From Candidatus Gracilibacteria bacterium S5_H10 (GTDB lineage: Bacteria; Patescibacteriota; Gracilibacteria; Absconditabacterales; Absconditicoccaceae): a DNA stretch of 64,000 bases. Positions 9,156-56,716 of this stretch are shown here, piece after piece. Within the stretch, counting starts at the first letter, position 1. Each line of letters opens with the position of its first letter. The notes below the pieces were generated by a model. It was not told the DNA's origin and did not search any database. It saw only the letters and a list, made by a program, of their open reading frames with translations. A program made the position numbers and the translations under genes. The stretch lies in NCBI GenBank assembly GCA_019248075.1, contig JAEHHG010000001.1:9294-73293 (forward strand). Reading direction: 5' to 3'.

Positions 9156-9839
9156 TTAATCAGTAAATAAAGATTTTAAATATGTTTTAGATTTGTGATA
9201 TAGTGTATAATCTATTTGGATTAACCATATACCATCATTGAGATATATAAGCATAAGCACTCGTTGATCTTTATATTCAGGAAGATTTATGAAGACTACT
9301 TTATTTCCAAATAATTTGTTTTGGAGAATATCTTGTTCTGTAGCTAATGTATATAAATCTCCTTTGAGTGCTCTAGCTATACTTGCAAAATCGTAACTTG
9401 GCGTACCGAGATATATATATCGCGTACCGTTTTCGTCAGCTAATGCATATTGATATTTTATTCATAATTTTTCTATAATTGCTATCGATCCATAATATAC
9501 ACTCGTTCCCGAAAGCAATGTTATACCTGTAGTATTTTTTACTGTTCCTGTAAACTGAGGAATAGTTATTCATGTTGTATTCTTTGTTATTCATGTATTT
9601 GTCCATGTTTCTGTCATAGTACCTGTATTTGTTGTTTGATTGGTTGTTACTGGACGTATAGTTGCCATATCATCTCAAGTCTTGCTGAGAATCTGTATAG
9701 TAGATCATGAGTTTTCTGATTGAGGATTTTTTTTGACATCAGATCATTTTACTTGGTATCGTACGATATATACAATCATTAGCGCCAAAAAGAGTAGCAT
9801 CATCGAGAATCTGAGGATTTTTTGCTCTTTAGTATACAT
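9156..9839 (-). CDS. hypothetical membrane-anchored protein (227 aa) inserted between nusG and rplK
   Basis: I checked the frame codon by codon. It has an N-terminal TM helix (FSMMLLFLALMIVYIV) and a Thr/Asn-rich linker with TGITKNTTGIT repeats. I recognise no family. Confidence 0.5.
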
Positions 9840-9929
9840 CCAAATGATCATCAAATAAAAGCTATCTACAGAGAAGCGACAAGACTAATGGAATATTCCA
9901 CTCACCTGTCCTGTAGTATATATATATGA

Positions 9930-10520: not shown

Positions 10521-10572
10521 ATACAGTAAAACAATAAAACGGGCAAACGCTTAACGTTTGTCGGGTAGTTTT

Positions 10573-10755
10573 TTATTGCATGATGCTATAGAATCGTTTG
10601 TAGACACCAGAAAAAACAGTATCTGTTGCAATAAAATACATTCCTGCAAATACAATAGCAACAAAAATCGCAATTGTAAGATTGATAAAATCTTTTTTGG
10701 TAGGATGCTTTAATTTTTTGACAGTTTCTAGACTATCATAGATAAATTTCATCAT
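10573..10755 (-). CDS. secE: preprotein translocase subunit SecE
   Basis: A 60-aa protein with a single C-terminal TM helix, VKKLKHPTKKDFINLTIAIFVAIVFAGMYF, in the conserved position upstream of nusG. Confidence 0.8.
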   Translation of the reverse strand: MMKFIYDSLETVKKLKHPTKKDFINLTIAIFVAIVFAGMYFIATDTVFSGVYKRFYSIMQ

Positions 10756-10927
10756 GGTCCTTTTTTTCAACAATAAAAAAAAAGTTTGGTGCCATCATAC
10801 TACTAAAGTACATCGGTTTTTCAAGGGGAAATTACTCCAAAATACTTTTAGAATATGTACTGACAAATCCCCTTCTCCAAGAGCAATATTATATACGATT
10901 TTCCTCCAGACAGGATCTGCAAAGTTA

Positions 10928-20864: not shown

Positions 20865-21716
20865 CTATTCTGCTATAACAAGTACTCATTTCTTTAACTG
20901 AATCAAACCTTCTTGCTGAAGACCTTTCACGATATTTTTCACTTCTTTGTGTGGGAATTCTTCTTGAACGTCTTGGACATGCAATGATCATTTTTTTACT
21001 AATTGTTTCATTATTCGTCAGCGGACTTGTCTATCAGAGCCTTCGAATTTTGATTGCTTAGATAATGATTTTATCTTGGTTTTTCTTGCGGTCAGCAATA
21101 ATGCTCATTGATCCATAAGTGCGTTGTGTCGATCACGAGACTTTCCTTTTGGAATGACTTTGAGTGCAAAAGCTTCAAGTTCTTTTGCTGTAATAGTTTC
21201 TGGTAGTTTGAACAAGAAAATCAAGACTCTCCTGATATTCGTATCGATCACCGGTACGGGTAAATTCCATGCAAATGCCATAATGGCTGCTGATGTGTAA
21301 GGGCCTATTCCTGGAAGCTTTTGTAGGGTATTTCTTAGTTGGTTGATCTGATTAGTGTGGATTCCGGCTCCAACACTTAACCCACGCAGTTCTGCGGGGC
21401 AGGCTGCCGGAATGACGTCGGAGACGATAGTTTTTGCACATTCTTGTAATCTTAGCACTCTCGAGTTGAATCATAATCCTGATCGATGACGGAGCAAATC
21501 TTGTTTTGAAGCATTCGCAAGTGATTGATAATCAGGAAAATCTTTCATTCGTTTATGAAAATAAGGAATCACCCTATCAACTTGTGTTTGCTGGAGCATT
21601 ACTTCAGAAATATGGATAGCATAAGGATTTTTTGTCTGCCTTCGAGGAAGTTTGCGGCCATTTTTTTCATATCAAGAAAGAATGCTTTGTTGTATTTTTT
21701 TGATATCTTGAGACAT
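20865..21716 (-). CDS. HhH-GPD base-excision glycosylase (MutY/Nth-like, without the Fe-S Cys cluster) with a C-terminal winged-helix-like extension
   Basis: PYAIHISEVMLQQTQV...LPGIGPYTSAAIMAFAWNLPVPVIDTNIRRVL...HNALMDQGALL. The UGA at 21105 is read through; ends at TAG 20865. Confidence 0.8.
21358..21420. repeat. family-1 palindromic repeat inserted in frame within the glycosylase CDS
   Basis: tggattccggct...ctgccggaatgacgtc has the same termini as the intergenic copies at 13803 and 42317. Its length is 63 nt (21 codons), encoding DVIPAACPAELRGLSVGAGIH. Confidence 0.6.
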
Positions 21717-21719
21717 ATG

Positions 21720-21995
21720 TTACAAAGAGAATAATAATATAATAGAAAATATAATCCGTGCACCAACGACCAATCGGAATCTTGTAAGAAATTTTCCTTT
21801 TATGGTTTTATGACGGAAAGCTTGCATTCCAAGAATAGCCCCCAATCGTCATCCAAGTGCTGTACATATTAGTAAGTTTTTTTCTGAGATTCTTCGTTTC
21901 TGAGCAGTAGCTTTGTATTTATCTACTCATCGAATCACAAAAGTGACAAGATTTATAAAAACAAGGTATCGTATAAGTAAGCTGGTTCGTGTCAT
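21720..21995 (-). CDS. DUF1294-like small membrane protein
   Basis: DKYKATAQKRRISEKNLLICTALGGRLGAILGMQAFRHKT. Confidence 0.6.
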
Positions 21996-22035
21996 ATTTT
22001 ATTCATACAAAATATAAAACAACATAAGGTCGATA

Positions 22036-25646: not shown

Positions 25647-27455
25647 CTATTTTTTTTGATGCGTGAGTTTATCTATGATTGCAATATCTATATCAGAAGG
25701 ATTTAGTTTAAGATAAAAATCATAAATACTTCATTTACAAATAAGCGGAAGTTTTTTTCCTATCTCTTTTTCTATGAGCTCTATAAGCGGAATTACTATC
25801 TTTCCTAGCATATCATTTTTATTTTTTGAGTAACTGGAAACAGACAATTCTTTGTTTGCTATATCTTTTCCTATATTTTCTATCAGTATCTTGAGAATAT
25901 CTACTGTTGCTGTTTGAGAATGAAGATCTTCAGAAGTTAGTCTGCGTCCATTGATATAAATCTTATTGTTGATCATATCCAGGAGGATTCATTTTTTATA
26001 ATTTTTTATCGTAGTCTCACAATTTCCTAATCTTACTTGTCCATCTGCCATTTTGAGAATACAACTACTAGAATCCAAAAATTCTGAATATATTCATTGT
26101 CCCAGATCCTGTTCAAATTTAATTCCTTCATATTCTCCTCCATCTACCCAATTGAGATAAATCATCTTTGATCCTATAAAATCTACATTTATCTTATCTG
26201 CAGCATCAACGATTATTTTTCTGAATCATTCAAGTGGCATAGCAAAAATTAGTGATCATCACATAATTGTACTATCATTTGGTGAAACAGAGATATATTG
26301 CTGAGGTCCATGAAAATTCTCTAAAAATGATTTAATAAATTTCAAAAAATTTGTCGAGCTATTTCTTGTTACACAATCAGCTTGTCTTAATTTTCTTAAG
26401 GAATCAAGAAATTGCAACATATGTGTCTCTTCATATGCTTCAGAATAAATTTTTGACATATAATATAAGATTTTAAGACTTATCGTTCCCATAAGTTTAC
26501 CATATGTCATATCAAATTCATCTGTCTCTGGAGCAATCAGATATTTATAAAATCTCGGAATCTTATTCGGATGAAGGTTACTGAAATATTCGCCCATCAA
26601 TTTTTTTATATCAGATTTTATAGTTTTTGTTATAGTCTGATTTGCTTTATAATTATTCCCAGCTATCTGTTCGAGCAATACCGGTTTCCCTGAATAGATA
26701 ACTCCATAATCTATAGGAATATAAGGATTCTCTCTCAAACCTTTAAAGAGATGATTGAGTCTAAATCCATAACATCTTTTAATTATTTCATCTTCCGACA
26801 ATAACGATTTATCTCCATCTTCAGAAAATGAAACTATAGGATAATATCCATCAAAAAACGTAGCTAATTTTGTTGCTGTAGAGATCATTCCATAAATTGA
26901 TTTATCAAAATGCAATGCATCTACAAATATTTTATGAAAATCACTATAATGATCGTTGATCACTTCATTGATATTTTTGCCTTTGAGTTCTTGGAGCCCT
27001 TTTCCATCAATATTTCAAAATATTCTCTGAATCGCAACTGCGAGCAGAAATGCTAACAAAGAACCGAATCATAATCATACTCCCCTCGGCAATTCAGAAA
27101 GAATGTTTATTTGAATCCCTTCATGAGGCGGAAGTAATTTTCCATATTTTTTTTCCAATTCTTTGTTGATGTCAGCAAAATATGGTGCATATTCTATAGC
27201 ATTAGTTTCGATATATTGATATTCATTGATATCAAGATGATATATTTTATTTACAAAAATTCATGGTGTAGAACTTTTTGTATATCATATATACATACGC
27301 AAAGGAATCTTTTGCTTAATGGACACTCCACTATAATTATTCAAGATATCGCCTGATCGATTGATAACAAATGGAGATGAAATAACTGTTTGATTTTCTA
27401 GAAAAAATCTCTCGTATGTTTGTACATACGTCTTCTTGAGGTTTTTAGAATTCAT
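25647..27455 (-). CDS. GHMP-kinase-like domain fused to an OmpR/PhoB-type winged-helix DNA-binding domain (602 aa)
   Basis: Track ORFs 26259 and 25731 and the upstream fragments share one frame. ILSELPRGVGLGFGSLLAFLLAVA resembles GHMP motif II, and TIMGGSLIFAMP resembles motif III. The C-terminus KIYINGRRLTSEDL...ILKILIEN.GKDIANKEL...KGSIYDFYLKL fits the Trans_reg_C pattern. Confidence 0.55.
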
Positions 27456-27504
27456 CAATTGGGAGGAAAAAATAAAAAATTATAAATATTTTTTGTTTTT
27501 TTGT

Positions 27505-27534
27505 TAAAAAAAAAGCGTGAAGGAATTTTCACGC
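27505..27534 (-). terminator. rho-independent terminator
   Basis: Stem gcgtgaa/ttcacgc followed by T9 on the minus strand. Confidence 0.65.
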
Positions 27535-27700
27535 AATTTATTTTCTCATTTATGAGCGGGGTCGAAGAAATATTATGATCACATGATCAATCATTATATA
27601 GTTTTTCTTTGGAGCAAATTTTTGATATACTCATAATGAGGAATAAATAAAAACAAGTTTGCTGATTCAACGAAAACCTAAAAAATACGGCGCATTATTG

Positions 27701-28314: not shown

Positions 28315-28736
28315 TTTTTATATAGAATATAAAATCTTGAATTTAGAAAGTTTGCATATGCTTTATTATTACTGTTTTGCGGAGCGCTTACCACAGACAA
28401 ACTTTATTGTATTTATGATAGCATATACCAGACTGATTTGTACTTATTTATTTGTTGTTTTCAATAAGTTTTTGTGTTGATATTGGGTAATAAATTGTTA
28501 TTCTCTCTTTGTCATTGGACTATCAGTGATTATTTTTTGTTTGCTTATAACAATCAAAAAAGGACCATATCTTTGGTAAGATAGAGCCCTTTCTCATTGC
28601 TTTATACAAGCATATGGATTCACTACACATCTATATTATATATATATTATATAAAATGTCAAATATTTGAATCTCTACTATCACATATATTTAAAAACCG
28701 CTTATATCCTAGTTTTTATCATATTTTTAGTCCTCT

Positions 28737-29996
28737 ATGCAAAAACTTCAAAAACAATTACGAGATAGTTTTCAAGATGATATTGGAGAGCTCAGTAAAC
28801 CACTCCAAGAACTCTTAAAAAATGGACTGGGAACCAATACGATTAACGAAGAAGATGTTATCTCAGATGTAGATGATATGGATTTGAGCATCAAAATGAT
28901 CGAAAAATTTTATGAATTGGCGGAAAAGCTCAGCATCAAGATGATTACTATCGAAGAAGTCTTAGAAAAAGAAGCTGAAGCAGCAAAGAAAGAGACTAAA
29001 TTGGGTAAAATAGAACTTTACGACACCAAAAAAAACACTTCTGAATCACAACACAAAGATTTCATCAAACTTTACTTCAACGAAATATCTAAGATTCCTC
29101 TCCTTACTTCCGAAGAGGAAAGAGATGTTTCAAGACGTGTAAAAAAAGGCGATGATGAAGCAAAAAAAAGATTAATAGAATCCAATCTCAGATTGGTTAT
29201 TAGTATAGCAAAAAGATTTTTCTGATCGAGACTGAGTTTTTCTGATCTTATCCAAGAAGGTAATATCTGACTCATCAAAGCTATAGAAAAATTTGATCCA
29301 GACAAAGAATTTAAATTTTCTACTTATGCAACTCGATGGATCAAACAGAGTATAACAAAAGCAATCGCAGATATGACCAAACATGTAAGGATACCTGTCC
29401 ATCTGATAGATGAAATTAATTCGTATAATAAAACGTATCAACTGCTCTTCCAAAAACTTTGAAGAGAACCAACTTCAAAAGAAATATGACAAAAACTCTG
29501 ATTTCCTATCAAAAAGATCAAGAAACTGGAAGAAGTAATATTTTGAAATGTATCACTTGATAGAGAAGTCGGTGATGAAGGAAGAGACACACTCGCTGAT
29601 CTTATCGAAGATGGAAACACCCTCAGACCAGATCAATACGCCGAAAAAAATACCTTAAGAAAAAATCTCGATATGATCTTGTGAATGCTTGATGATAGAG
29701 AAGCAAAAATCGTGAAAATGAGATATGGAATCGATGGTCCGAGATATACCCTCGAACAAGTCTGAGAAGAATTTAATGTCACAAGAGAAAGAGTCAGACA
29801 AATCGAGCAAAAAGTCATCCAAAAACTCAAAGAACATGCTGGATTACAAAAAATACTTGGAATTGAGGATGATATTGCTAAACTTGAAGCCAACGAAGGA
29901 AAAAAGAAGAAAAAATGAAGAAAAATCAAAGATGATGATGATGAAGAGAATGATTACATGAGCAGGTTTGATGATGATGATTATATGGATGATTAA
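28737..29996 (+). CDS. rpoD: RNA polymerase sigma-70 factor RpoD
   Basis: LIESNLRLVISIAKR...DLIQEGNIGLIKAIEKFD...FSTYAT(CGA)WIKQ...TLEQVGEEFNVTRERVRQIEQKV; an acidic tail; ends at TAA 29994. Confidence 0.95.
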
Positions 29997-30048: not shown

Positions 30049-31950
30049 ATGGGAGATTTGAATTCAAAAGATTATGATGCGTCGCATATCAAAGTGTTGG
30101 AATGATTGGAACCAGTCAGAATGAGACCATGAATGTATATCTGATCTACTGATGCAAAAGGATTACATCATCTTGTCCAAGAAATCGTTGATAATGCAGT
30201 TGATGAAGCGTTGGCAGGATATTGTACTACCATCACTACCGCTTTGAATGAAGATGGATCAGTCACTATCCATGATAATTGAAGATGAATCCCTGTAGAC
30301 AAACACGAAAAAACAGGAAAATCTGCATTAGAGACAATATTTACTGTCTTGCATGCTGGAGGTAAATTTGATAAATGAGCATACAAGATTTCATGAGGAC
30401 TTCATGGTGTAGGAGCTTCTGTCGTTAATGCATTGAGTGAATGGCTAGAAGTAACCGTATATAAAAACGGAAAAAAATATTTCCAAAGATATGAAAGAGG
30501 AATTCCCAAATGAGAAATCCAAGAAATGGGAGAAAGCGACAAAATTGGAACAACAGTTAAATTCAAACCTGATGCAACAGTCTTTGAAACTGTGGAATTT
30601 TCTCAATCGATAGAAGTTACTAGGATGAAGCAATCTGCCTATCTTTCTCCTGGTATTACCTTCAATCTTGTAAACAAGAAAACATGATATAAACAAAGAT
30701 TTTACTATGAATGAGGTATCAAGACTCGATTAAAAAATCTTGTTGGTACGCAGCAAGCACTTTCTTCTGCACATCATTTTAAAATAGAAGGAAAGGATTG
30801 TTTAGCAGAAATAGCTTTTGAATTTGTAAATACAAGTAATGATCACATCCTCTCTTTCGTGAATAATATTCCAACCATTGATGGAGGAACTCATGTCCTT
30901 GGATTTAAATCAGCATTGTTAAATATTATCAATGAAGTAGGAAAAGAGAAAGACAAAATCAACAAAAAAATATGAGAATTCCAATATTCTGACGTAACCG
31001 ACGGATTGTATGCTATCGTCACCGTTAAGATTCCTGAACCACAATTCGAAGGACAGACCAAAGGAAAATTATGAAATAGTTATGTAAGAGGTGAAGTAGA
31101 AAAAATCGTATATGATTATCTCAAAGACTATTTTATACACCACGAAGACGAATTTGATAAAATATTTGAAAAAATTGAACTTGCCGCAAGAGCTAGATTA
31201 GCAGCAAAATTTGCTAAAGAAACTGTCTTAAGAAAAAATATATTGGCTGGATGAGTCCTTCCTGGAAAATTGGCAGATTGTGCAAGAAAAAGCAAAGAAG
31301 GAACTGAAATGTACATCGTGGAGGGAGATTCAGCGTGAGGAAGTGCAAAACAATGACGTGATAGTAATTTTCAAGCAATCCTACCATTGAGAGGTAAAAT
31401 ATTGAATACTGAACAAGCTGCTATACAAAAAATGATGGCTAACAATGAAGTCAAAGCTTTGATCACAGCTATCGGAACATGAATAAAGGATAATTTTGAC
31501 TTCGAAGGATTGAGATATGATAAGATTATCATCATGACAGATGCCGACGTCGATGGTGCACATATCAGAACATTATTACTAACATTCTTCTTTAGATTTA
31601 TGAGACCACTGATCGAACACGGTCACGTTTACGCAGCATGTCCTCCTATCTATAAGTTCTCTCAAGGAAAAAAAGAAGAATATGTTTATGAGGAAGAACA
31701 CACTCCTGATATGTATGGATTTGATAAAGAAAAAACTGAGATCCAAAGATATAAAGGTCTTGGAGAAATGAATCCAGAACAACTACGAGATACTACTATG
31801 AATCCAGAAAATAGAAGATTAAATCAAATTACTGTGGAAGATGCTGAAGAAGCAGATAGATTATTCAGAATATTGATGGGAGAAGATGTCCAATCAAGAA
31901 AACACTTCATTCTGACTCATGCAAAGACTGTAAAAGAATTGGATATTTAA
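30049..31950 (+). CDS. gyrB: DNA gyrase subunit B
   Basis: [18 protein letters not shown]...[15 protein letters not shown]...[27 protein letters not shown]...[20 protein letters not shown]. Confidence 0.95.
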
Positions 31951-34087: not shown

Positions 34088-34669
34088 ATGATTACTTTAC
34101 CATTACTTCCTTATGAATTTACTGAATTAGAACCTATAATTGACGCTCAGACTGTAGAAATTCATTATACTAAACATCATCAGTGATATGTAAACAAATT
34201 AAACGAACTTATCGCTGACACAGGATTTAAGGATCGAGAATTGAAAGAAATCATCAAAACTGCTGATTGAGCTATATTCAACAATGCAGCTCAAACATGG
34301 AACCACACCTTTTACCGACAAGGACTTCAATCACCAAAAGAAAATAATGAACCAAGATGAGCGCTCTATGATGCTATTATAGCGCAACGATGAAACTTTC
34401 AGACTTTTGTAGAGACTATGACAGCAAGTGCAGTAGCAAATTTTTGATCAGGACGAACACGGTTAGTAAAAAATCCTGATAATACACTTGAAATCATCAA
34501 TACAAGCAACGCATGATGTCCGCTTACTATGGAAAAGATTCCCTTACTTACTATAGATATTCGAGAACACGCGTATTATCTCAATTATCAAAATCGCAGA
34601 ATAGAATATGTTAGCAATATCCGAAAATGTATCAATCGAGACAAAGTCTTAAAAAGGTATGGAGGATAA
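34088..34669 (+). CDS. sodB: Fe-type superoxide dismutase
   Basis: [22 protein letters not shown](CGA), NFGSG(CGA)T(CGG)LVKN and TIDI(CGA)EHAYY. From memory, this is nearly colinear with E. coli SodB. Confidence 0.95.
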
Positions 34670-36374: not shown

Positions 36375-36400
36375 ATACGATTTATATTATCTTATCTACA

Positions 36401-36733
36401 ATGAGTGTAACTATAACTCTTCAAAAGACTGATGGAACTGTAATCTCTAGCTTTTTGGCTGAAGATCATCAAAGCATTGCTCAAATGACAAAAAAACAAG
36501 GAATAAATTTTCCCATATCTTGTGGAGTTGGACTTTGCGGAATATGCAAATGCAAAATACTTGCAGGACATGAATATATCCAAATAGATAAGATTTCACT
36601 ACCTATAAAACCCCTTGAAAGAGACGAAAACTGAAATTTTACAGAAGTCTTTGCGTGTGTTTGAGGAGTAAGCTCTGAAGCAATCAAAGATACAGAACAT
36701 CACGAGATCATTCTAGAAAAAGACATAATATAG
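36401..36733 (+). CDS. 2Fe-2S ferredoxin-like protein
   Basis: SCGVGLCGICKCKI...FACVGG; ends at TAG 36731. Confidence 0.6.
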
Positions 36734-36779
36734 TAGTATTCCCAAAACATCTAAATATTTTATCTTATTATATATAGTA

Positions 36780-39146: not shown

Positions 39147-40715
39147 ATGAAAAAATTTCTAATCACAACGCCTATCTATTATCCTAATGGCTATCCACAC
39201 ATCGGACACGCATATAGCTCGTTCATCGCTGATTTCTATGCGAGATACAAAAGACTTTTTGGATATGACGTAAAATTTTCTACCGGTAACGATGAAAACA
39301 GCCAAAAGATCGTCCAACAAGCGGAATCTGAAGGGAAAGATGTTATGGAATATCTCAATGCGATGGGCAAAAAACGAGAAGATGTCCGACAGCACCTCCA
39401 GATTTCCTATACTGATTTCATTAGGACTACTCAAGAAAACCATAAAAAGTTAGTCCAAGAAATGCTTCAGAAGTCTTATAATCACTGAGATATCTATGAA
39501 GGAGAATATAAGGGATATTATTGTATAGGATGCGAAGGATTCAAGACAGAAAAAGATTTGATCCCAAAAGATTGAGAAATGGTCTGTCCTGATCACCTCA
39601 AAAAGCCTGATCTCATCACCGAAAAGAATCGATTTTTCAAACTTTCAAAATATGAAAATCAGATAAAAAAATTCTATACTGATCATCCAGAATTTCTCGT
39701 ACCGGAGTATAGATACAATGAAATAAAATCCTTCGTCAACGGAGGTCTGATAGATTTCTCCGTCTCTAGGGAAACTAATAAATTTTGAATACCCTTACCT
39801 TTTGACCCAAGCCAAGTGACCTATGTACGATATGATGCTTTATTCAATTATGTAACTGCAAGCAAAGACGCATGATTCCGAAATGAAGACACTGAAATCG
39901 TCCATGTTCTTGGGAAAGATATCGTAAAATTTCATGGAATATTCTGGCCAGCTATGCTGATGAGCGTACAAGAAAAGTTGCCAAACAAAGAATTCATTAC
40001 TGGGTTTTTTACCGTCGACGGACAAAAGATGAGCAAATCGCTCGGCAATGTCATTGATCCCGTAAAAGTCGTAGATGACTATGATAGGGATGCTGTTATT
40101 TTCAATCTTCTCTACGATGTACCTATCGGCGCTGATGGAGATTTTTCTGTAGAGAGATTATGACATCTGTATGAAAGTATGCTCATCGGATGATGGGGAA
40201 ACCTGGTCAATAGAGTAACGAGCCTTTGCAAAAAATACGGAATCACTAGTGGAAAATTCAACAAGCAAAAATGGGAGACATTCAAAGAAGATAACGAAAG
40301 CAAGCTCCTTCATTACTTTGAAGAATGACGAGACAATGCGAAAATAGAAGAGCAATATCTTAGAAAAGCGGAGATCAAATCCTATCTCGACGACCGATAT
40401 CAATTAGTCCAAAGAGCCAACGAATATATCACGAGAGCTGAACCACGAGCTAAGTATAAAAATGATGATACGAAGAATGAAGCCATTGCTGATCTCCAAT
40501 TTCTCTTGTATATAGTCAAAAATATCGCTTTGATTTCCGCACCTATCCTCATCAATGGATTCAAAAAAATCCAAGATATTTTTGGTAACGAGGAATTTGG
40601 CAAAATCGATTCCAGCAAGAACGGCAACGAACATCAATTCAAATTAGTCTTTGATCAGGAAGATTTCACAGTGAATCTAAATCCTGCGATTATCTACAAA
40701 AAGAAAGAAGAATAA
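39147..40715 (+). CDS. metG: methionine--tRNA ligase
   Basis: TPIYYPNGYPHIGHAYS (HIGH), YV(CGA)[14 protein letters not shown] (KMSKS), and EP(CGA)AK in the anticodon-binding domain. Confidence 0.95.
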
Positions 40716-44574: not shown

Positions 44575-45828
44575 TTATATCACAGATATTTCATTTTTCC
44601 ATATATCAGATAATTGTTCCGCATTTCTAATTGTTACAAGAGATCAATCCTCTCTCACCAATATTTCTGCGATTACAGGATATGAATTATAGTTGCGAGC
44701 AGACATGCTAGCACAATATGCACCTGTTCATTCTACGACCAATATATCAGCTATTTCAGCTTTGTTAAGAAGTCTCGGACAAATTTCTTCTGAATTTCCT
44801 GGAGCAGGAGTTAAAATATCTCAACTTTCACAACAAGGACCTACAACAACATATTCCTGAGTTGCTGTTTGATCGTTTACTACAATGATTGGATGTTGTG
44901 CTCCGTATAATGTCGGTCTCAAAATATCTGGCATACCGATATCTGCTTTGATAAAATGATTTCACTGGTTTCCGGTATCTACTATATCTTCTATACATCC
45001 TACTATTGCTCCTGCATTTGCTACTAAATAACTTCCTGGCTCGATTTCTAGATGTAATTTTCTTCCTGTTTTTTCAAAAAATTGCTGAAAAGCGGTTTTT
45101 ACTTCAGCGCCAATGTCTTGTAAATCTGTAGCTTTTTCGTCTTGCATTCTCGCAACTTTAAAACCACCACCAAGATTTACTGTTGTCACATCAGGAAACT
45201 GTTCCACAAAAGATAAACTCTGCTGCGCTATTTCTTTCCAGACTTTTGGATCTGATCCTGATCCTATATGTATGTGTATTTTTTCTATGACAAGCGAATA
45301 TTTTTTAACGATTTCATGAACCTGATCTACATATTCATATCGGATTCAAAAACTAGAAGTCACTCATCACGTAGATGTTCTCTTCGTTCATCATGATCAT
45401 TTTCCTGGATTTATTCTAATAGAAAGATTGGTGTTTGGGTATTTTTTTCCATATTCTTCAAGCTGATATATACTTGTCGCATTATAGTGTATACCCAATT
45501 TCATCAATGGTCACAATTCATAACGAATTTCTTGTGTAGTAAGTTGTATTTTTTTAGGATCGATATTAGCGTTTTCCATAGCTCTATACACTTCAAAACT
45601 ACTGCTAGCATCTATATGGATTCACATTTTATCAAATAGTTTCAGAATATTTACATTGGAATTTGCTTTCATAGCATACCTTACCGTCAAGCCAAATGCA
45701 TGAGGAAAATTGAGACAATCTCTCGCCTTTTCTTTCAATATTTTTTCAGAATATACATATACAGGCAAAACATAGTTTTGTTTTATCGTATCAATTTGTT
45801 CTCTTGTCAAAAATTTTAATGTCTCCAT
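44575..45828 (-). CDS. PLP-dependent Orn/DAP/Arg decarboxylase family enzyme (LysA-like)
   Basis: TVRYAMKANSN (PLP Lys), HIHIGSGS, EPGSYLVANAG, GPCCESGD, and SSFGI(CGA). Confidence 0.8.
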
Positions 45829-45848: not shown

Positions 45849-47279
45849 TTAAAGTTTACTTATTTCATAGCTATCCTTAGTATCTTTTACCTGGAATCAT
45901 AATTCAGTAATCTTACTCCTCAATTCATCAGCCAACGCAAAATCTTTACTTTTCTTCGCTTCAACCCTCTGGTCTGCAAATGCTATAACTTCAGCTGGGA
46001 TATCAAACTTTTCTTCTACGATAGTTTCGAACAATCAGAGTTTTAGGAAATTATCTTCCAACCAAGTGATGATCGCATAGGTAGTTTCGGTTGCTGTATT
46101 CAATGCTCATTGTACCGCTGCTAATAATTTAGGTGTATTCATATTGTCGCAGATGGCTTCCATGATTTGTTGAAACAATGGATCAGATTCAAAATCTTTT
46201 TTATCTTGTATCGTCTTTTTTCATTGAAGTTTTTTTATTAAGGAATGTCTGGTATTTTTGGCAGCTTCTAATTGATCCCAAGTAAAGTTTTGGAAGTTTG
46301 AATATTGGGCCATGAAGTAGAAATATCTGAGATCGAGTGGAGAAAATCCTTTAGCTTCTATGTCTTTCAAGTTGTAAACGTTACCCAATGACTTGCTCAT
46401 TTTTCCGCCATCTACCTGCAAGAACTCATTGTGAATCCGATATTTTACTCGAGGATGAACGTCGAAACCACACTCAGATTGTGCTATTTCGTTGGGATGA
46501 TGAATCGTGATATGATCCGCTCCTCCATGATGAATATCAAACTGGTGTCATAAATATTTAGATGACATTGCACTACACTCTATATGCCAACCAGGAAATC
46601 CTCTTCCCCATGGCGAGTCTCGCTCCATCTGTCTCTTTTCGTTTTCGGGAGCAAATTTTCGTAAAGCGAAATCAGTCGGATGTTTTTTTCCTCCCATCTC
46701 CACTCTTTCTCCTGCGTTCAGATCCGCCAAACGTTTTTTGTAATTTGGTCACATAAGCTCTCCATAATTTTCTACTTTGCTCGTGTCCATATAGATTCCA
46801 TCTCATTCGACAGTATAGGTATATCATTTTTCTTCTAACGTTTTGACTAATGCTATCTGTTCCTCAATATGTTCGGTTGCTCTCGGCATCACATTGAATT
46901 CGTCTATATGCAAAAGTTTCATTCCTTCTTTGAAAATTTTCTCATATTTCTGAGCCACTTCTCGAGCGGTAATTCCTTCACGTTTCGCTCACTTTTCCAA
47001 TTTATCTTCTCCATCATCAGCATCTGAAACCAAATGTCCGACATCAGTAATATTCATCACTGCTTGTACGTTGTAGCCAAGAAGTTTTAACGTATTTCTA
47101 ATCAAGTCTGCCGTGAATGTTGCTCTATAATTCCCAATACTAGGATCTCGATAAACGGTCGGTCAGCATGAATACATTCCCACAAAATCTTTTTTAGGAC
47201 CTTTATAATTAGGATCTTCCATCAAGGGAATAAATTCTTCCTTCTGACGAGTGAGTGTGTTGTAGATATATAATTGCAT
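45849..47279 (-). CDS. cysS: cysteine--tRNA ligase
   Basis: [21 protein letters not shown](CGG)IHNEFL, and [10 protein letters not shown]. Confidence 0.95.
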
Positions 47280-48287: not shown

Positions 48288-50756
48288 ATGGTAAATTTTG
48301 GAATCCTCGGTAACAATTCGAGGAATCTCCTCTATATAAAAAAATTTAACGACAAAAAAGGTATTCGTCTAGCAAACAATAAGCTTCAGACGAAAGATTT
48401 TCTCGTAGAAAGAGGAATTCCGTTTGCAAAGACTTACGGAATTATTTCCAATCGTACAGAACTCTATGATTTTGATTTTGCTTATCTTCCCAAGAAAAAT
48501 TTTGTCGTGAAGCCCAATCATGGAAGCAAATGACAATGAGTCTATATTGTAAAGTATATCGAGGAACAGCATCCAGATGAAAATAATAGTAAAGAAAAAA
48601 ATATCAGTAAAAAGAAAAATACATTTCAAAAGCGATGAGAGCAATGTAAAAAAATATTTTTGAAAAAGTTTGAAGAACATCAACATCACGGCAACTACCA
48701 GATAGGAGATGAAGTACTGACTGATCAAGATTTTAGAAGACGTTTGCTAGATATCATTGATGGAAAGCATTCTATGACACTTGGTGGAGACAAAATCATT
48801 ATAGAAGAAAAACTCATCGCCGGAGAATTATTCAAAGAATTTTGTGACTATGGATTGGCTGACATTAGAGTCATCGTCTTCAATCTCGTGCCTGTCGCGA
48901 CCATGATCAGAGTACCGACAAAACAATCCTGAGGTAAAGCAAATCTCGCTCAGTGATGACTGTGATTTGGTATTGAAGTCGGAAGTGGTAAGATTACTTC
49001 CCTACTCCGAAAAAATAAAATATACAAAGTTAGATTTCCCAAAAAATTCGCTCATTTCCAAAATAAAAAACTTCCCTACTGGAATGACATTCTTTTTCTT
49101 TCTTCCAAAGTACAGTATTTTGTCAATCTCTGATATCTCGCACTTGATCGAGTAATAACCAATGAATGACCAAAACTTCTGGAGATAAATGCAAGAGCGT
49201 GATTAGAAGTACAAAAAGTAAGTGATACAAAATTGAAAAATATTTTGGATAAAATAGCTGATCTCAAAATAGTCGATCCAGAAAAATGAGTAGAAATAGC
49301 AAAAAGTTTATTCACTTCTGAAAAATCAAATCTCCTCTGACAAAATAAACTTCTTTACCTTTCTCAATATGCAAAGCTCATCATCAAAGAAAAAGAAGAA
49401 GAGGAAAAAATTGATGTTATCGTAGAAGTAGATCTGAATAAATCATGAAATTATATGTCACAAAAATTGTTTAATAAAATCAAAGAAAATAAAAGAGAAC
49501 GATATCTTGATCTCTACGAAAATGAGATTACCCTCAAAAAATCAAAATTTTCTAATCTGGAAAGTCTAGCTGATAATAAAATAATTCTTGGTAACAAAAC
49601 TGCAAGCAATTATCTTATAAAACCTATTCATAAAACTTTTGATGTCGTTGATATCGTCAATCCAAAATATATTTATCCATTGGAAACTGCAGAACTTCAT
49701 AGCATTGATCAAAGAATAGAAAAAATCAATAAAAGACTTAATCTCTCTGCAAGACTAAGACCACTAAATTATTTTAGTGAACTCGATAAATTCATCACGC
49801 TTCACGGAAAATATAATCCTATTTTCCATTATAAACGACCAAAAGAAGATAAACTGAATCAGACCAAGAACGAAATTATCAAAATCCAAGAACACCTTCT
49901 CAAGCTCAAAAGCCCGTTTACTAAGATATTTTTGGACAAACTTGAAGAACTAGAAACGAGAAGAAATCTCATTCTTGCGTATACACAACAAAATTTTGAA
50001 AATATAGCATTGTACAATAAAAAACTTTTTGGTGAGTTCGATGATGAACTTTTGAAGATAGCAAAAGAAAAGGTATTAACACTCAAGGAAGATAATCAAA
50101 AGCTTTTGTGAGAACCGTTGACTCTATCGGAAATAGAAAAAACCATAGAGAAATATCTCGCAGAAAAAAAGATTTATGGTGTAGATATTGTTTTCAGTTA
50201 TACTAATCTTTCAAGAATTTCTGTGATTATGGGAAAACAGATTAAAATAAGCATTTCCAAGCATGGAGTATTCAGAGAAAAGGAATTGCTTTCTATTTTA
50301 GCCCATGAAATCGATACTCATCTCGTCAGATATCTTAATGGACTCAAATCTGGATGGAACATTTTAAAATCAGGAACTGGATTCTATCTCAAAGATGAAG
50401 AAGGGCTCGCCATCTATAATGCCGTCAAAATACTTCCTGAAGATTATGAAAAGAATAGTTTCTATAAAAAATATTTTTTAGTCAAAGAAGCAGAAAATAT
50501 AGATTTCAAAAAACTTGTAAATATGATAGAATTTCTTTATCCTAGCTATTCAAGAGAATTCCATTTTAAAACTGCATTGAGAATCAAAAAAGGAATTATA
50601 CATACATCAATACTCCATCCAGGAACTGTTTTTATGAAAGATAAAATCTATCTAGAATGATACAAAAAAATCAAACAACTAATGGAAGATTGAAAAGAAA
50701 ATGCTAAAATATATAAATGAAAAATTAAAAGTGAAGATTTAGATTATATAATATAA
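48288..50756 (+). CDS. fusion protein: RimK-related alpha-L-glutamate-ligase-like ATP-grasp domain (N-terminal) plus DUF1704/QEGLA MATCAP-like metallo-carboxypeptidase domain (C-terminal); 822 aa
   Basis: Track ORFs 48288, 48660, 49455 and 50118 are all in frame 0 and join through UGA. ATP-grasp signatures: FVVKPNHGSKGQGV, DIRVIVFNLVPVATMIRVPTKQSGGKANLAQGG and GPKLLEINARAGLEVQ. C-terminal domain: HEIDTH (50304..50321) and DEEGLA (about 50396). Confidence 0.8.
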
Positions 50757-50757
50757 C

Positions 50758-51726
50758 ATGGCGGCAAAACTATGATTTCAACAAATTTCCAAATATTTTT
50801 TGCAAGAAGAAGCAAAAAAAAGGTGATATACTATAGAAACTATTCATGAAAATAAAAATATTTTTTTTATAAAGCACAAAACAAAAAACATCTTATTTAA
50901 ATGAATCGATGCTTGATTAACTACTAGACTTGGCAAATATTTAAGCGAAGACAAACTTTTAACCTATACATTATTACAACGTAATAATATAAACATACCA
51001 GAATGTATAGTGATACATAAAAAAAACAAGATAGATCTTACAAATATAATAAAATTATGATTTCCATTGGTAACGAAACCTCTCAATTGAAGCTTATGAA
51101 GATGAGTTGTTGTATGAATCAAGACTAAAAAAGAACTAGAAAAAGCAATTAATTATAGCTTTGGTTTTGATAAAAATATCATCATACAGAAATGCGTTGA
51201 ATGAAAAAATCTAAGAATATTAGTCATCAATCATAAGGTATTTGCGTGATTAGAATGGTCAAGACATCATATAGTATGAGATGGAAAATCCTCCATCAAA
51301 GCATTATTAGAAAAAGAAAATCTAAATTCTCGAAGATGAGAGAATATTCTTATATCCACACTTCCAAAAATCAATATCAATCAAGATTTAGAAGATTTTT
51401 TTAAAGTACAATATTGATATGCATTTACTCATCGTCCTAAAAAGGATGAAATAATTTTTCTCAAAGGAAATGGATACAATAAAGTAATAGATATTACCGA
51501 TGAAATTCCGAAAAAGATTAAAGAAAAGTGTGAACAAGCAAGTATTGTTTTTGATTTAAAGGTTACAGGGATTGATGTGATATATAATATATCATCTTCA
51601 GGGGAAATGGATTATCGAGTATTGGAAGTAAATTCTCAGCCAGGAATAAGAACACATCATCTACCCATGTGATGAAAACCGAGAAATGCGGCATGAGCTA
51701 TTTTGGATCTTTATTTTGACAAATAA
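50758..51726 (+). CDS. ATP-grasp ligase resembling the N-terminal domain of cyanophycin synthetase
   Basis: The ATG lies 1 nt after the upstream stop. FPLVTKPLNGSLGRGVVVGI...RILVINHKVFAG...VLEVNSQPGIRTHHLPMGGKPRNAAGAILDLYF. Confidence 0.7.
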
Positions 51727-51760
51727 AGCATACAATATATTTATTTTTTCACTATCATCT

Positions 51761-52714
51761 ATGGAATTCGGATCATATGCATCTAATCAAATCTATAAAT
51801 ATGCTAAATCATACGATGTAAAAGCAACTGCGATTTCTTATGCAGACAACCTTATCCTGTTGGAGCACAAAGGAAAAAAAGAATTAATAAAGCAGACAGC
51901 AACTCGTTTCACTAATCTTATCCAAGGAAGAATCTGCGACAATAAGATTTTGACAACACAATATTTAAAAAGGAATTGAATCGATAATGTACCCAACAAC
52001 ATAGTGATCAAAGATTTTGAAGAGATAAAAAAGTATAAAATAAATTATCCCGTAGTCGTCAAACCATTAAAATGACATTGATGAAAAGGGATATCTGTAT
52101 GAGTCAGGACAAAAAAAGATTTGGAATCAGCATATAAAATAGCTAAAAAAGTTTATTTTCGCGTATTGGTGGAAGAACATATAGAAGGCGATGATTATAG
52201 ATTCTTGGTGATTGATAAAAATGTCCGAATATGCAAAAGAATGCCGCCAAAAATAATGGGGAATGGAAAAAATACCATTAAAAAACTTATAGACAACGAG
52301 AACAAACTAAGGGCAAAAACAAAAATTCTCGTGAATATCAAAATTGATAATGAGCTTAAACAGCAAATAAAAAAACAAGGATATACTTTGGATAGTATTC
52401 CTGCTAAGGATGTAGAAGTAGCACTTAGAAAAAACGCCAATCTGAGTACGTGAGGTACAACTATTGACTATACAGACCAAACACATATACAAAACAAAAA
52501 ATTAGCACTCAAAATAGCCAAGATTATGGATATGAAAATCATAGCCGTAGATTTTCTCTTTAAGGATCCAACGAACCCCTATTCTAAAGAAAATGGGATA
52601 ATTATAGAGATAAATGATACACCATGAATAAGATTACACCATCCAAGAGAAAAAGAGATTGTATATAACATATGTAAACTTTTATTCCCTACTCTTAGAA
52701 AATGAAAATATTAA
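51761..52714 (+). CDS. second cyanophycin-synthetase-N-like ATP-grasp ligase
   Basis: YPVVVKPLKGHGGKGISVGV...YRFLVIDKNV...NLSTGGTTIDYTD...IIEINDTPGIRLHHP. Confidence 0.7.
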
Positions 52715-53571
52715 TAGTCCATGCTATAGAAAGACCCACACTTAATTTATTAGTACAGGCAGCCAAAAAAAGATGACATACTGTTCTTACGTGTAAAATA
52801 TCGGATATTGAAATATATGATGGAAAAATATTCTGCAACAATCAAGATATTGCATCTTTTGATATTGTACTTTTTAGAGAAATCAGAAACAATAACGAAG
52901 AAGCAAAAATGATAACAACATATCTTAATGATTATAAAAAAATCATCATAGATGAAAGAATACGTGATGGTAAATGATGAAGTAAAATAAATACTTATCT
53001 GACACTTTCTCAGGCAAAAATCCCATTCCCTAAAACGATGTTTTTTTCAACAATCAAAGGCAAAGGATATTCATTTATTTCAGAGATATTATGAACACCC
53101 TTCATAACAAAGACAATAAATGGACAACAAGGGAAATGAGTCTATTTGACAACAAGCGAAGACGAATTTGAAATACTCAAAAAAGAACATACGGAAGATA
53201 AATTTTTGTTTCAAGAATTCATACCTAATGATTGAGACATCAGAGTGTTTATAGTATGAGACAAGATATTATGATCTATCAAAAGAACAGCACAAGCATG
53301 AGAATTTAGGAATAATGTAGCATTATGATGAAGTGCAGAAACAATAGAGATATCAAAAGAAATAGCAGAAATAGCGTTGAAAGCTAGTAAAATATTATGA
53401 TTACAAATAGCATGAGCAGATGTAATCATACACAAAAATACAGGCAAACCATATATTTTGGAAGTAAATCGTTCGCCGGAATTTGAATGATTTATGGAAG
53501 CAACACATATAGACGTAGCTACCGAAATCATCTCTTTTCTTGAAAAAATATGAACACCAGAACTTACATAA
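52702..53571 (+). CDS. RimK-type alpha-L-glutamate ligase
   Basis: It overlaps the upstream gene by 13 nt. PFITKTINGQQGKGVYL...GDIRVFIVGDKILGSIKR...FRNNVALGGSAE...GADVII....GKPYILEVNRSPEFEG. Confidence 0.8.
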
Positions 53572-53607
53572 CAACATCATATAAAATATTTGCAAAATAA
53601 AAAAAAC

Positions 53608-53637
53608 AGGGTAAAATAATATTACCTCTTTTTTTTA
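53608..53637 (+). terminator. weak rho-independent terminator
   Basis: A short stem gggtaa/ttacct followed by T8. Confidence 0.4.
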
Positions 53638-53654
53638 TTAAACACCATTAGCGT

Positions 53655-55343
53655 ATGAAAAAAAATACCGATCAAAACGAATCCCTACAACAAAAAGAAT
53701 TCATGAATATCGCTAAAAAAATAGAAAATATCAAATCTAATATTGAAAAACCTATTTGAGGTATTTTACAATATACTCCAAACGGAATTAACAAAAGTTT
53801 TTTTTCTGAAAGTATAGAAAAAGTAACTCAGAGGGATATTGATAACGCGACTATTTTTCTTAATAGCTATTTACAAGAATTCAAAAGATTGGCAAAAGAA
53901 GTCCAAGAAAGTACTTTTCTCAATGATGTACAAAAAAAACTATTTATATGAACACTTAAAGCATTTGGTTTAAAAATAATACTCTTTAAATCTGCTGTGT
54001 ATATAGAAGGAGAAAAGTGATGATATGAACTCAATCCCAAAGATAAAGAACAATATCTCAGAAATATTGAAAAAATAGAAAAACTAGTCTATTGACCAAA
54101 TATATCTGAAAAAAAAGAAGAAGTAGATGTAATTATGACTTGATTAGATAGTCTCTATCAAAAAAATAAAGATAAAATCACTCTCGAAGAGCAAAAATAT
54201 TTTTCTCATTTTTTAGAAAAGTTTCCATGAAGAATATCAGAGACGAAAGAAATAGATATCGATAAAAATAAATTATGAAAACTTAACCAAGAAAATCTTG
54301 CTAAGATTTTTCAAAAAGGACTTAATATGTACAATATACAATCCAATATAGTTAAAATAAGTGATAAAATATCAGAAATTAAAGATGAAGATTGAATTCT
54401 TTATCTTCCACTACAAAATCCTAGCACCTGAGAAGGACGATTGAAAAAAGATTTGGATACTATATACGAAAAATTTTGATATAAAAACAATATATTGAAG
54501 ATAAAAATACACAAATGTGCTGCGATAGAAGTAGATATTCCTGGATATGAAATAAATATACCATCTAGCACTAATTACTATTCTGTTATCAGATCTTTGG
54601 AGCTATTATCACATGAGATTGTTACTCATGCATTTATCTGAACCAATAAAAAAAATAAATTTAATTTAGAATCTGATAGCTATCTCGAACTTCAAGAATG
54701 AATTGCTATGCTCAACGAAAAAGCAGTAACTACTGATATCAAAAACATATCTGTTGGTCCAACTATACATCATATATCAACATTTATTTGAGAAAATTAC
54801 AATATTACAGATACAAATAATATTTTACAAATATATTATAAGTTAAATGGTAAGAAAAACTTTCAAAGTTTAGCAAAAAATAGGACAGAAAGAGTTAAAA
54901 GATTTCATGCTAATGATCAGGAATGAGCCAACAGAAAAGATACAGTATATCGAAGAGGTATGGTAGATGGATTAAATTATATAAAAAACTTAGATGAAAA
55001 AAGCATAGAAGACATAGAAACACTACAAACAGATATTTTCAATTTTCATGTCGGGAAGTTAGGTAAAGAAGAGGTAAAAAATGTTCCACAACTCATAGAA
55101 TGATTTGATATTACACCGAAAAACATCATTTTACCTGCAGATATTGGAAAATTATTACTTTGGCTGTTGGAAAAAAATTCGCCAGATGGAAAATGAATCA
55201 AAATAACCAATGAAGCATTAGGGAAAAATGATATAAGATTTAAAGCATCGTTACCAGAGCAAAAATTAAATTATACACAGAAAAAATTACTCTTAGAAAT
55301 GAGAACATTCATCCAAAACAACACAGAAATAGAAAAAAAATAA
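53655..55343 (+). CDS. DUF1704/QEGLA-family (MATCAP-like) putative metallo-carboxypeptidase; 562 aa
   Basis: Open in frame 0 with many UGA-as-Gly codons. HEIVTH lies at 54612..54629 and QEGIA at 54693..54707, where the Gly of the motif is itself a UGA codon. Confidence 0.7.
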
Positions 55344-55382
55344 TACATAGTTTCGCTTGAATCCTATTGTTAAATCAGTTTA

Positions 55383-55412
55383 ATACAGACGATTTATTTG
55401 TCTGTATTTTTC
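55383..55412 (+). terminator. rho-independent terminator or attenuator
   Basis: An 8-bp stem atacagac/gtctgtat followed by a T-run, only 3 nt upstream of the next ATG. Confidence 0.55.
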
Positions 55413-55414
55413 TT

Positions 55415-56716
55415 ATGAAAAAAATCATCGCCATTATAGCATTACTTGCGGGAAGCATATTCCTTTTTACCACTACTTCAGCACAATTTACTTCCACCAC
55501 TTGTGAAGGACAAAGTCACTGCTCTGCTCCTACAAAATGAGTAAATTATAGAAATACTATTATCTATCTCTGAGAACAATGAGAAGAATTCGATCTCGGA
55601 TTTCAACAAAATTTTGATAAACAAAAAATTTTACTCCAGGAAATTTTTATCTCTGAAAATAAAAGTTTTTCTGAAGAAGAGCTATCAAATAAGATATTGG
55701 ACAATCTTGAGGAAATCAAAAAAGCAAATACGTTGATTATCAATACTGCAAATTTTGATATTCTTTTCCAATCGCTAGGAAAAATAGATGCTATAACTCC
55801 ACTTAATTTAGAATGAAAAACGATATATCTTGTAACCAATAGTAATAAATTTTTTCTCAAAAGAACCCTTGCTAAGCAAATCAAATCCATAAAAACAGAA
55901 AAAATATATACGCTATCTCAGAGTAAATTGCTCAATTTTCTTTCTACCCTTTCATTGGGAAAAATAGATAATAATGAAGACTATATAACGTCATTTTCGC
56001 TTTCATTTCATGAAACACCAAAATTTCTTATTATTTCGTATCTTGTAGATCATCTTATCTATAACTGATTTCCTATCGAGCTCATTGGCATGTTTTTATT
56101 ATTATCAATATGAGCATTGGTGATAAGTGTCCTCAGGCAAGTTGTTTGATTTTCTGTCTTTGGTATTTATATTCCGCTTTTGTTTGCACTTTCGTTGTTC
56201 ATGCTATGAGTACCATTAGGATTAACTTTATTAGCGATAGGATTGATTGCAAAAATACTTGTAAGACTTTTCACCAAAAAAATGTATCTGCTTCACAACG
56301 CCAAAACATCACTACTGGTTATGCTTTATTTTTTTATTCTCTTGCTGTTTTTGGGACTCAATACAATATTTGATCTCCCCTTTATAGATATGAATATTTT
56401 CAATAATGTATTTATCATCTTACCACTCGTCTTTGTAATCATAATCAGTGATAAAGTATTTAACGACTGATTCAAACTTTTTAGCAAAGGACGATGGGTA
56501 GCATTTATAGAATTTTTAGCTGTTTCATTCGCTGTATTCGGGCTTTTCTATCGAACTGGACTCAAACATACCTTATTGGCTTTCCCAGAACTTTTGATTC
56601 TGATCTTCTTTCTCAATATCGCTGTCGGAAGATTTACCGGACTTCAACTTCTCGAATATTTCCGTTTCATGCCATTACTAAAAAACTCCTCATGGACTGA
56701 GGAGGAAGAGGAATAA
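55415..56716 (+). CDS. signal peptide plus extracytoplasmic domain plus 7-TM module, resembling the 7TM domain that accompanies RimK-related ATP-grasp ligases; encoded C-terminus is EEEEE
   Basis: MKKIIAIIALLAGSIFLF signal sequence, about 200 aa of soluble domain, then seven hydrophobic helices (track fragments 56243 and neighbours); ends ...LLKNSSWTEEEEE, TAA 56714. Confidence 0.6.

Follow-up and report, generated by a model that had tools for sequence, protein, structure and literature searches.

Introduction

Sense-to-sense codon reassignments are very rare in free-standing bacterial genomes, and Trp codons that lie in two codon boxes are unusual. The closest described system is the code of the Absconditabacteria (SR1), for which a reassignment to Trp of the codons CGA and CGG was predicted using Codetta (Shulgina & Eddy, eLife 2021; PMC8629427). 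This code has since been restated (PMC13092985; 2026 preprint 10.64898/2026.05.03.722492), and the latter source counts seven distinct bacterial code reassignments in all. Experimental or peptide confirmation of Trp at CGA or CGG was not found in the literature searched.

Other bacterial systems resemble this code in part. CGG means Trp in Anaerococcus and in the RFN20 Bacilli (Onthovivens), which is likewise the transfer to Trp of an Arg codon from the CGN box, at low GC and with a Trp-type tRNA-CCG (PMC8629427; PMC13092985). In those lineages CGG alone has changed, since they lack tRNA-UCG and use tRNA-Arg(ICG) to read CGA, and CGG is very rare (<6 per 10,000), whereas CGA and CGG make up about half of the Trp codons in the DNA analyzed here. 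In Enterosoma (CAG-288 Bacilli), AGG encodes Met. This is also a bacterial sense-to-sense reassignment of an Arg codon, which rebounded to a major codon and for which a change of tRNA identity is likewise the proposed route, but codon, amino acid and phylum differ from our case.

We analyzed a 64-kb stretch of DNA, referred to below as the window, for which an earlier note made from the letters alone had proposed that CGA and CGG are read as Trp. The best explanation of our data is that the window belongs to an Absconditabacteria (SR1) bacterium in which three codons depart from the standard code, with UGA meaning Gly and both CGA and CGG meaning Trp, a reading to which we assign a probability of about 0.93. 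The code change is real and strongly supported, but it has been known since 2021. The earlier note gave the prediction of Shulgina and Eddy correctly as to the two codons and their new meaning; it confined the prediction to a clade within the Absconditabacterales, whereas the prediction was made for the whole Absconditabacteria/SR1 group (10 Absconditabacterales genomes). Its view of the window as direct gene-level evidence has to be qualified: conserved positions of single-copy genes and tRNA genes had already been examined (PMC8629427), and the window is therefore one more confirmation rather than the first evidence of this kind.

Results

The GC content of the window is 0.325 overall, compared with 0.29-0.38 in the published Absconditabacteria genomes, and varies between 0.28 and 0.37 along the sequence in 4-kb windows. 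When TGA is read as a sense codon and only TAA and TAG as stops, the window contains 66 open reading frames (ORFs) at a coding density of 90%, and its coding is this dense only under that reading of TGA. The 66 ORFs contain 449 in-frame TGA codons. AGA dominates among the Arg codons with 402 occurrences, and the combination of low GC and AGA-dominated Arg usage that characterizes the Absconditabacteria code is found here. As to taxonomy, a profile search with the superoxide dismutase (SOD) of the window was performed, and gave 120 nearest proteins, all of them conceptual translations; those that bear a name are labelled 'candidate division SR1', 'Candidatus Absconditabacterales', 'Absconditicoccaceae' and 'Absconditabacteria'. 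These names point indirectly to a placement in the Absconditabacterales/SR1, i.e., in the same clade as the published code.

The SOD gene offers the densest set of informative codons. It occupies positions 34088..34669 on the plus strand and encodes an Fe/Mn enzyme of 193 codons that matches Escherichia coli SodB (1isa) with an E value of 1e-57. The ORF contains eight CGA or CGG codons (CGR) and six in-frame TGA codons, the latter located on conserved Gly. By comparison with solved Fe-SODs, six of the eight CGR codons are on invariant Trp, one is on a position held by Phe or Trp, and one is on a variable position. The six are those that the earlier note had named, with correct coordinates, and they correspond to Trp in SodB and in other Fe-SODs of the PDB, in five of five PDB alignments. 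CGA at aa 77 (34316..34318) represents the invariant Trp of FYW, where relatives have CGA (six), TGG (two), CGG (one) or TTT (one). The GSG-W-T-W-L motif is encoded as CGA (aa 123)-ACA-CGG (aa 125) at 34454..34462, with CGA starting at 34454 and CGG at 34460; in relatives, the first of these positions is CGA in seven cases, TGG in two and CGG in one, and the second is TGG in nine and TGT in one. The Trp of D(V/I)-W-EHAYY, here D-I-W-EHAYY, is CGA at aa 159 (34562..34564; TGG in six relatives and CGA in four). Finally, the C-terminal W....W pair at 34622..34639 consists of CGA at aa 179 (34622; TGG in nine relatives, TTT in one) and CGA at aa 184 (34637; TGG in five, CGG in three, CGA in two).

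The two remaining CGA codons of the gene were absent from the earlier list. That at aa 101 (34388..34390) corresponds to Phe in the E. coli enzyme and to Trp in 9twc and 4l2a, and among the 120 nearest database homologues this column holds 'R' in 101 entries, W in 11 and F in 8. The other, at aa 50 (34235..34237), lies at a position that is variable in the PDB alignments and uninformative (K 49, R 18, W 12 and L 10 among homologues).

CGR codons were found at Trp positions of unrelated genes as well. In RpoD, CGA at aa 200 (29334..29336, plus strand) faces the first Trp of the E. coli region 2 motif A-T-W-W-I and is followed by TGG, the stretch A-T-CGA-TGG being aligned with W-W as had been reported. 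In MetRS, CGA codons are present at aa 228 in the motif YV-W-(F/Y)DA (39828..39830, plus strand; YV-CGA-YDA in the window) and at aa 434 in the P-W of the anticodon domain (40446..40448, plus strand). Both had been listed in the earlier note, and both are Trp in the enzymes of Aquifex (2csx) and Staphylococcus aureus (7wpi); the former is also Trp in E. coli, and at the latter a low-identity tblastn alignment with E. coli misplaced the P-W codon onto Val. A third CGA of the same gene, at aa 81 (39387..39389, plus strand), is again Trp in 2csx and 7wpi. CysRS contributes three codons that face E. coli Trp on the minus strand, namely, the previously reported CGG at aa 310 in Y-W-(I/M)-H (46437..46439; Y-CGG-IH in the window) and, within 46620..46661, CGA at aa 249 (46620..46622) and at aa 236 (46659..46661). 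Trp is also the E. coli residue opposite CGA at aa 163 of diaminopimelate decarboxylase (LysA; 45340..45342, minus strand), at aa 78 and aa 25 of a MutY-like glycosylase (21483..21485 and 21642..21644, within 21483..21644 on the minus strand) and at aa 580 of GyrB (31786..31788, plus strand).

Control codons in these genes kept the meanings that the earlier note had given them. The conserved Arg of Q-G-R-D in GyrB is CGT (31357..31359, plus strand), and the Gly codon before it is TGA; the conserved Arg residues of RLVISIAKR in RpoD are AGA (29190 and 29214). The Trp of P-G-W-H-I-E-C in CysRS is TGG (46587..46589, minus strand), and TGG decodes as Trp against E. coli.

We then decoded the window against E. 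coli K-12, using 16 regions of that genome that carry orthologues of window genes. By tblastn, 20 window ORFs were aligned over 6,585 codons; CGA and CGG were entered as X to keep any assumed meaning of these codons from biasing the alignment. Trp was the E. coli residue at 15 of the 41 aligned CGR codons and Arg at 2. AGA, AGG, CGT and CGC (n = 212) faced Trp in no case and Arg in 116, and TGG (n = 28) faced Trp in 8 cases and Arg in none. CGR differed from the four other Arg codons both in its occurrence on Trp (Fisher test, P = 1e-13) and in that on Arg (P = 5e-10) and was indistinguishable from TGG with respect to Trp (P = 0.6); no preference of such positions for CGA over UGG was seen in the window (15/41 versus 8/28). 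The two CGA codons opposite Arg, at LepA aa 497 and GyrA aa 830, represent the chance level, given that 5.6% of the E. coli residues in the alignments are Arg.

For a decoding of the whole codon table, the alignment was repeated 62 times, with each codon masked in turn, and scored with likelihoods derived from BLOSUM62. The table 25 meaning was returned for 58 of the 62 codons, including Arg for CGU, CGC, AGA and AGG and Trp for UGG. CGA was decoded as Trp (n = 37), with a likelihood 10^25 times that of Arg and 10^10 times that of Tyr, the runner-up. CGG was also decoded as Trp, 10^4 over Arg, although with n = 2 only (SOD aa 125 and CysRS aa 310, both on E. coli Trp). TGA was returned as Gly (n = 143; log10 likelihood ratio, 63), and Gly was the E. 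coli residue at 102 of 161 aligned TGA codons. The other deviations were noise, i.e., TGC (n = 5) and ATA, for which Val and Ile were separated by 0.9 log units.

These results bear on three ways in which CGR codons could come to lie on Trp columns without being Trp codons in the DNA. If CGA and CGG were still Arg codons, the conserved Trp residues would truly have been replaced by Arg in many proteins. Nothing but the standard table speaks for this reading, the R found in database entries of the clade being a product of translation with table 4 or 25. Six invariant Trp positions of one small enzyme, and further ones in unrelated enzymes, would all have to be Arg, and CGA and CGG alone, but never the dominant AGA, would have to be placed on Trp columns (0/212 for the Arg-class codons). 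As only CGA and CGG are found there, and as in close relatives these codons alternate with TGG, and never with AGA or CGT (see below), we regard true replacement as excluded for practical purposes.

A second possibility, to which we attach an equally slight probability, is that the codons are standard in DNA and that the mRNA is edited from C to U at their first position. A single such change would indeed turn CGG into UGG. The same change in CGA, the majority codon (98 versus 18 CGG), would however yield UGA, which is Gly in this code, and CGA columns hold Trp or aromatic residues rather than Gly. Moreover, the published clade genomes have tRNAs with UCG and CCG anticodons that were judged consistent with Trp (PMC8629427).

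The third possibility, that CGA and CGG specify another aromatic residue, Tyr or Phe, is the least probable of all. It could draw on nine further CGR codons that are opposite Phe or Tyr in E. coli (9 of 39 aligned CGA codons), but TGG spreads in like manner onto Phe, Tyr and Leu, and Trp is ahead of Tyr by the factor of 10^10 given above. In addition, relatives swap CGR chiefly with TGG, while TAT is a minor partner and TTC a rare one, as described next.

For codon exchange, we turned to 43 related loci of SR1 (412 kb in all), which had been collected by way of SOD homologues and by a scan for NusG; a scan of contigs for SOD motifs provided at least three relatives among the matches listed (L017, L019 and L035). 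Window genes were compared codon by codon with their orthologues, with the eight codons of interest masked. At 27 of the 40 CGA sites, some relative had TGG, and at one, an Arg-class codon (AGA, AGG, CGT or CGC). The CGG sites, few in number (n = 8), had TGG in some relative in six cases and an Arg-class codon in none, which gives 33/48 and 1/48 for the pooled CGR sites. Reciprocally, 23 of the 35 TGG sites had CGA or CGG in some relative and one had an Arg-class codon, and TGG or CGR occurred in any relative at only 1 of the 260 Arg-class sites. Among the 337 pairs in which a CGR codon of the window was aligned with a codon of a relative, CGA or CGG was kept in 131 and replaced by TGG in 111 and by TAT in 17. 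The exchange counts thus define CGA, CGG and TGG as one synonymous class, cleanly set apart from the four codons that are still Arg. TGA, for its part, exchanges with GGN among relatives. Two CGA codons of GyrA, at aa 830 and aa 762, where E. coli has Arg or Lys, have TGG or CGA in relatives.

The lone Arg-class site with TGG or CGR in a relative is located in the poorly conserved N terminus of the ORF at 9156..9851. A chimeric or contaminated window was also considered and dropped, as the CGR-Trp signal is spread between 2.7 kb and 47 kb in the comparison with E. coli and over 0-38 kb in that with relatives.

The decoding against E. coli, the codon exchange with relatives, and codon usage all agree on Trp for CGA and CGG. 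The 66 ORFs contain 98 CGA, 18 CGG and 87 TGG codons, next to 402 AGA, 67 CGT, 62 AGG and 24 CGC. If TGG were its only codon, Trp would make up 0.45% of residues; counting CGR as well, it makes up 1.05%. The CGG/CGA ratio of 0.18 resembles those of AGG/AGA (0.15), GGG/GGA (0.15) and GAG/GAA (0.17), and the CGG/TGG ratio of 0.21 resembles that of the Leu pair CTG/TTG (0.24), which also differs at the first position. These matching ratios imply that the three Trp codons occur in the proportions that mutational bias gives to any synonymous set. At least one CGA or CGG is present in 43 of the 66 ORFs and in 38 of the 49 that are 150 aa or longer, in line with the earlier claim that the reassignment alters most of the proteins encoded here.

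CGR makes up 57% of the Trp codons in the window and about 0.45-0.55 of them in most related loci. The published genomes span about 16% to 61%, with GCA_002791215.1 at the top (PMC8629427), and the window is thus at the advanced end of this range but inside it. CGA occurs 51 times per 10,000 codons when all ORFs are counted and 59 times in the regions aligned with E. coli, compared with 13-37 in the published genomes as counted over Pfam-aligned positions, and CGA slightly exceeds TGG in the window (98 versus 87). The idea that CGA usage lies meaningfully above that of all published genomes was nonetheless dropped, since published values for the CGR share reach 61%, so that the 57% seen here is inside their range, and since it is typical of the related loci.

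The sequences leave Arg with CGU, CGC, AGA and AGG and provide Trp with three codons spread over two boxes, and they show a complete reassignment without a residual Arg signal. Codon usage further indicates a completed and long-established change, after which CGR would have fully rebounded as Trp codons in this sub-clade. The main competitor of a complete change is ambiguous decoding, in which CGA and CGG are mostly Trp but sometimes Arg owing to a residual or competing tRNA-Arg, i.e., a reassignment still unfinished. A mistranslation rate, including a minor Arg fraction, is beyond the reach of sequence comparison, and Shulgina and Eddy state that experiments alone can rule ambiguity out; their table also contains one Absconditabacterales genome in which CGG was inferred as Arg and several in which its meaning was left uninferred (PMC8629427). 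In the window, however, Arg at 2 of 41 CGR codons is the chance level, and relatives place an Arg-class codon at 1 of 48 CGR sites. CGR codons are found on catalytically and structurally invariant Trp of SOD, MetRS, CysRS and RpoD, at which Arg would do harm, and they constitute about half of the Trp codons in the window and its relatives, a usage hard to sustain under appreciable misreading. We therefore consider ambiguous decoding improbable, although less so than the three alternatives discussed above.

Discussion

The code of the window agrees with the published Absconditabacteria code (PMC8629427) in the meanings of all three changed codons and in the unchanged Arg codons CGU, CGC, AGA and AGG. 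The evidence is also of the same kind, reassigned codons at conserved Trp positions, and we see no qualitative difference between the two. What the window contributes is an independent confirmation at the level of codon substitution, which leaves existing knowledge unchanged.

The tRNAs that read CGR were sought in the same DNA. No tRNA gene was detected in the 64-kb window with ARAGORN and Rfam, and none with ARAGORN in the SOD-linked loci of relatives or in 35 NusG-linked metagenome loci; the total for the 43 related SR1 loci (412 kb) was likewise zero, while ARAGORN did detect 20 tRNAs in the non-SR1 loci, so that the program itself worked. NusG had been chosen as an anchor because tRNA-Trp is often located ahead of secE-nusG, but in the window no tRNA gene is present upstream of secE. 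The region is a 64-kb syntenic block that is devoid of tRNA genes in this clade.

TrpRS normally uses the anticodon CCA as a major determinant. An enzyme that charges tRNAs with UCG and CCG anticodons must consequently have a relaxed or altered anticodon recognition. According to the published presence/absence data, the clade has tRNAs with anticodons GCG, UCG, CCG and CCA and lacks ACG (PMC8629427). Under the rule of the same paper, a Trp-type tRNA has G73 and no A20; tRNA-UCG and tRNA-CCG were classed as such, and the clade tRNAs were reported to be consistent with the reassignment. Given the code, we consider the following tRNA and charging step, adopted from that inventory, quite probable. 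A tRNA whose anticodon is UCG would read CGA and CGG, supplemented by tRNA-CCG. Both tRNAs would have lost A20, the ArgRS determinant, and carry G73, a TrpRS determinant, so that TrpRS may charge them. One UCG anticodon would read CGA as well as CGG, which can account for the joint change of the two codons, and CGU and CGC would be left to tRNA-Arg(GCG), as inosine wobble would call for a tRNA-ACG, which the lineage lacks. As for the route, low GC may first have made CGR codons rare, as in codon capture, and single-base synonymous steps from TGG to CGG and on to CGA may then have repopulated them.

A broader reading combines several elements: the reassignment would be old and finished, TrpRS would be largely blind to the anticodon or accompanied by a second, specialised TrpRS, and the spread of CGR would possibly have been favoured as a protection against misreading. 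We hold this combination to be unlikely as a whole. Were the old and finished state real, it would contrast with the 'early stage' described in 2021, and CGA would be the most used Trp codon. One TrpRS would then charge tRNAs with anticodons CCA, UCG and CCG, which share only C35. The spread of CGR might move Trp off UGG, a codon that could be misread by the UGA-reading tRNA-Gly(UCA).

The practical consequences concern translation, as no standard table fits this code. NCBI table 25 (the SR1 and Gracilibacteria code) shares with the window UGA as Gly and TAA and TAG as sole stops, but it keeps CGA and CGG as Arg, an assignment that fails in the window on the decoding against E. coli, the Fisher tests and the exchange among relatives. 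Tables 25 and 4 give Arg at over half of the Trp positions, and with table 25 about 0.6% of the window residues are mistranslated. The error falls on the most conserved and functionally critical residues, affects 43 of the 66 ORFs, and is carried by public entries of the clade. It degrades homology searches, structure prediction and the matching of metaproteomic peptides across the whole group, and a 2023 study of Absconditabacteria phages used table 25 only for gene prediction. The window is thus a reminder that public translations of genomes of this clade are systematically wrong.

The 120 nearest SODs illustrate this. Their invariant Trp columns hold almost exclusively W or R, e.g., 73 W and 47 R at aa 71 and 81 R, 38 W and 1 L at aa 77, and their Gly columns hold G or W. 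The R in Trp columns of clade entries results from translation with table 4 or 25, and the W in Gly columns from the use of table 4 for many entries. In a handful of the most distant matches, the seven invariant Trp columns all hold Trp and aa 101 is Phe, as in ordinary SODs. The SOD of the window is itself represented by a public entry (P0121), translated with TGA as Trp and CGR as Arg, in which 14 of the 193 residues are wrong.

Database translations and classification of related sequences

The public translations of proteins from this clade are systematically wrong, as seen for P0001, for P0121, the entry identical to the superoxide dismutase (SOD) of the window, and for 120 SOD homologues, the nearest database proteins in a profile search. 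Many of these entries were generated with translation table 4, in which TGA is read as Trp, and all of them have Arg at CGA and CGG (CGR) codons. In P0121, 14 of the 193 residues are erroneous, including six invariant Trp residues and six TGA positions, five of which correspond to Gly in Escherichia coli SodB. In the retrieved passages of a 2023 study on Absconditabacteria phages (PMC10746230), the CGR reassignment is not mentioned, and the word "arginine" does not occur anywhere in the text of that study.

One of the related loci, L017 (CAZBQE010000003.1), carries the GenBank title "uncultured Candidatus Peribacteria bacterium." Its GyrB and RpoD proteins share approximately 90% amino acid identity with those of the window, TGA is a sense codon, and CGA and TGG are exchanged as they are in SR1 relatives. 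The contig has probably been misclassified as Peribacteria.

Searches for tRNA genes and the secE-nusG region

No tRNA gene was detected in the 64-kb window by using ARAGORN and Rfam, nor did any Rfam family reach its gathering score there. ARAGORN also returned no tRNA from the 412 kb of related SR1 loci (L017, L019, L035, and L097 to L136), a large part of which is syntenic with the window. In bacteria, the tRNA-Trp gene is often located upstream of secE. Here, secE (approximately 60 codons, minus strand) lies directly upstream of nusG, in a gap of the ORF list (10521 to 10927) that results from the 70-codon threshold of that list, and the approximately 140 bases upstream of it contain no tRNA. 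The nusG and rplK genes are separated by an inserted, uncharacterized ORF that codes for 231 residues (9156 to 9851), and rplA is not followed by rplJ and rplL.

Doubtful ORFs and additional genes of the window

The mechanical ORF list includes four short ORFs (21682 to 22017, 27398 to 27634, 28358 to 28579, and 36382 to 36750) that overlap or adjoin better-supported genes and are probably not true genes. As a result, the codon totals for the set of 66 ORFs include a slight contamination; the alignment-based codon tests are unaffected.

The uvrB ORF (62286 to 63842, plus strand; 518 codons) ends shortly beyond a conserved 10-residue motif, so that the helicase and UVR domains found at the C terminus of the 673-residue E. 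coli UvrB are missing. No continuation was found in any frame of the 158 bases remaining before the window ends at 64000, and the short ORF could mean that the gene is split, truncated, or interrupted by an insertion.

The window also harbors a tandem cluster of peptide-modification-type genes (48288 to 56716, plus strand). The first, starting at 48288, codes for an 822-residue protein in which an ATP-grasp domain of the sugar-transfer type (PF14397) is fused to a MATCAP-like metallopeptidase domain (PF08014). It is followed by three RimK-like ATP-grasp genes (50758 to 53571), a gene for a second MATCAP-like protein (53655 to 55343), and lastly one whose 7TM product belongs to the "inactive transglutaminase-fused" type (PF14402; 55415 to 56716), all on the plus strand.
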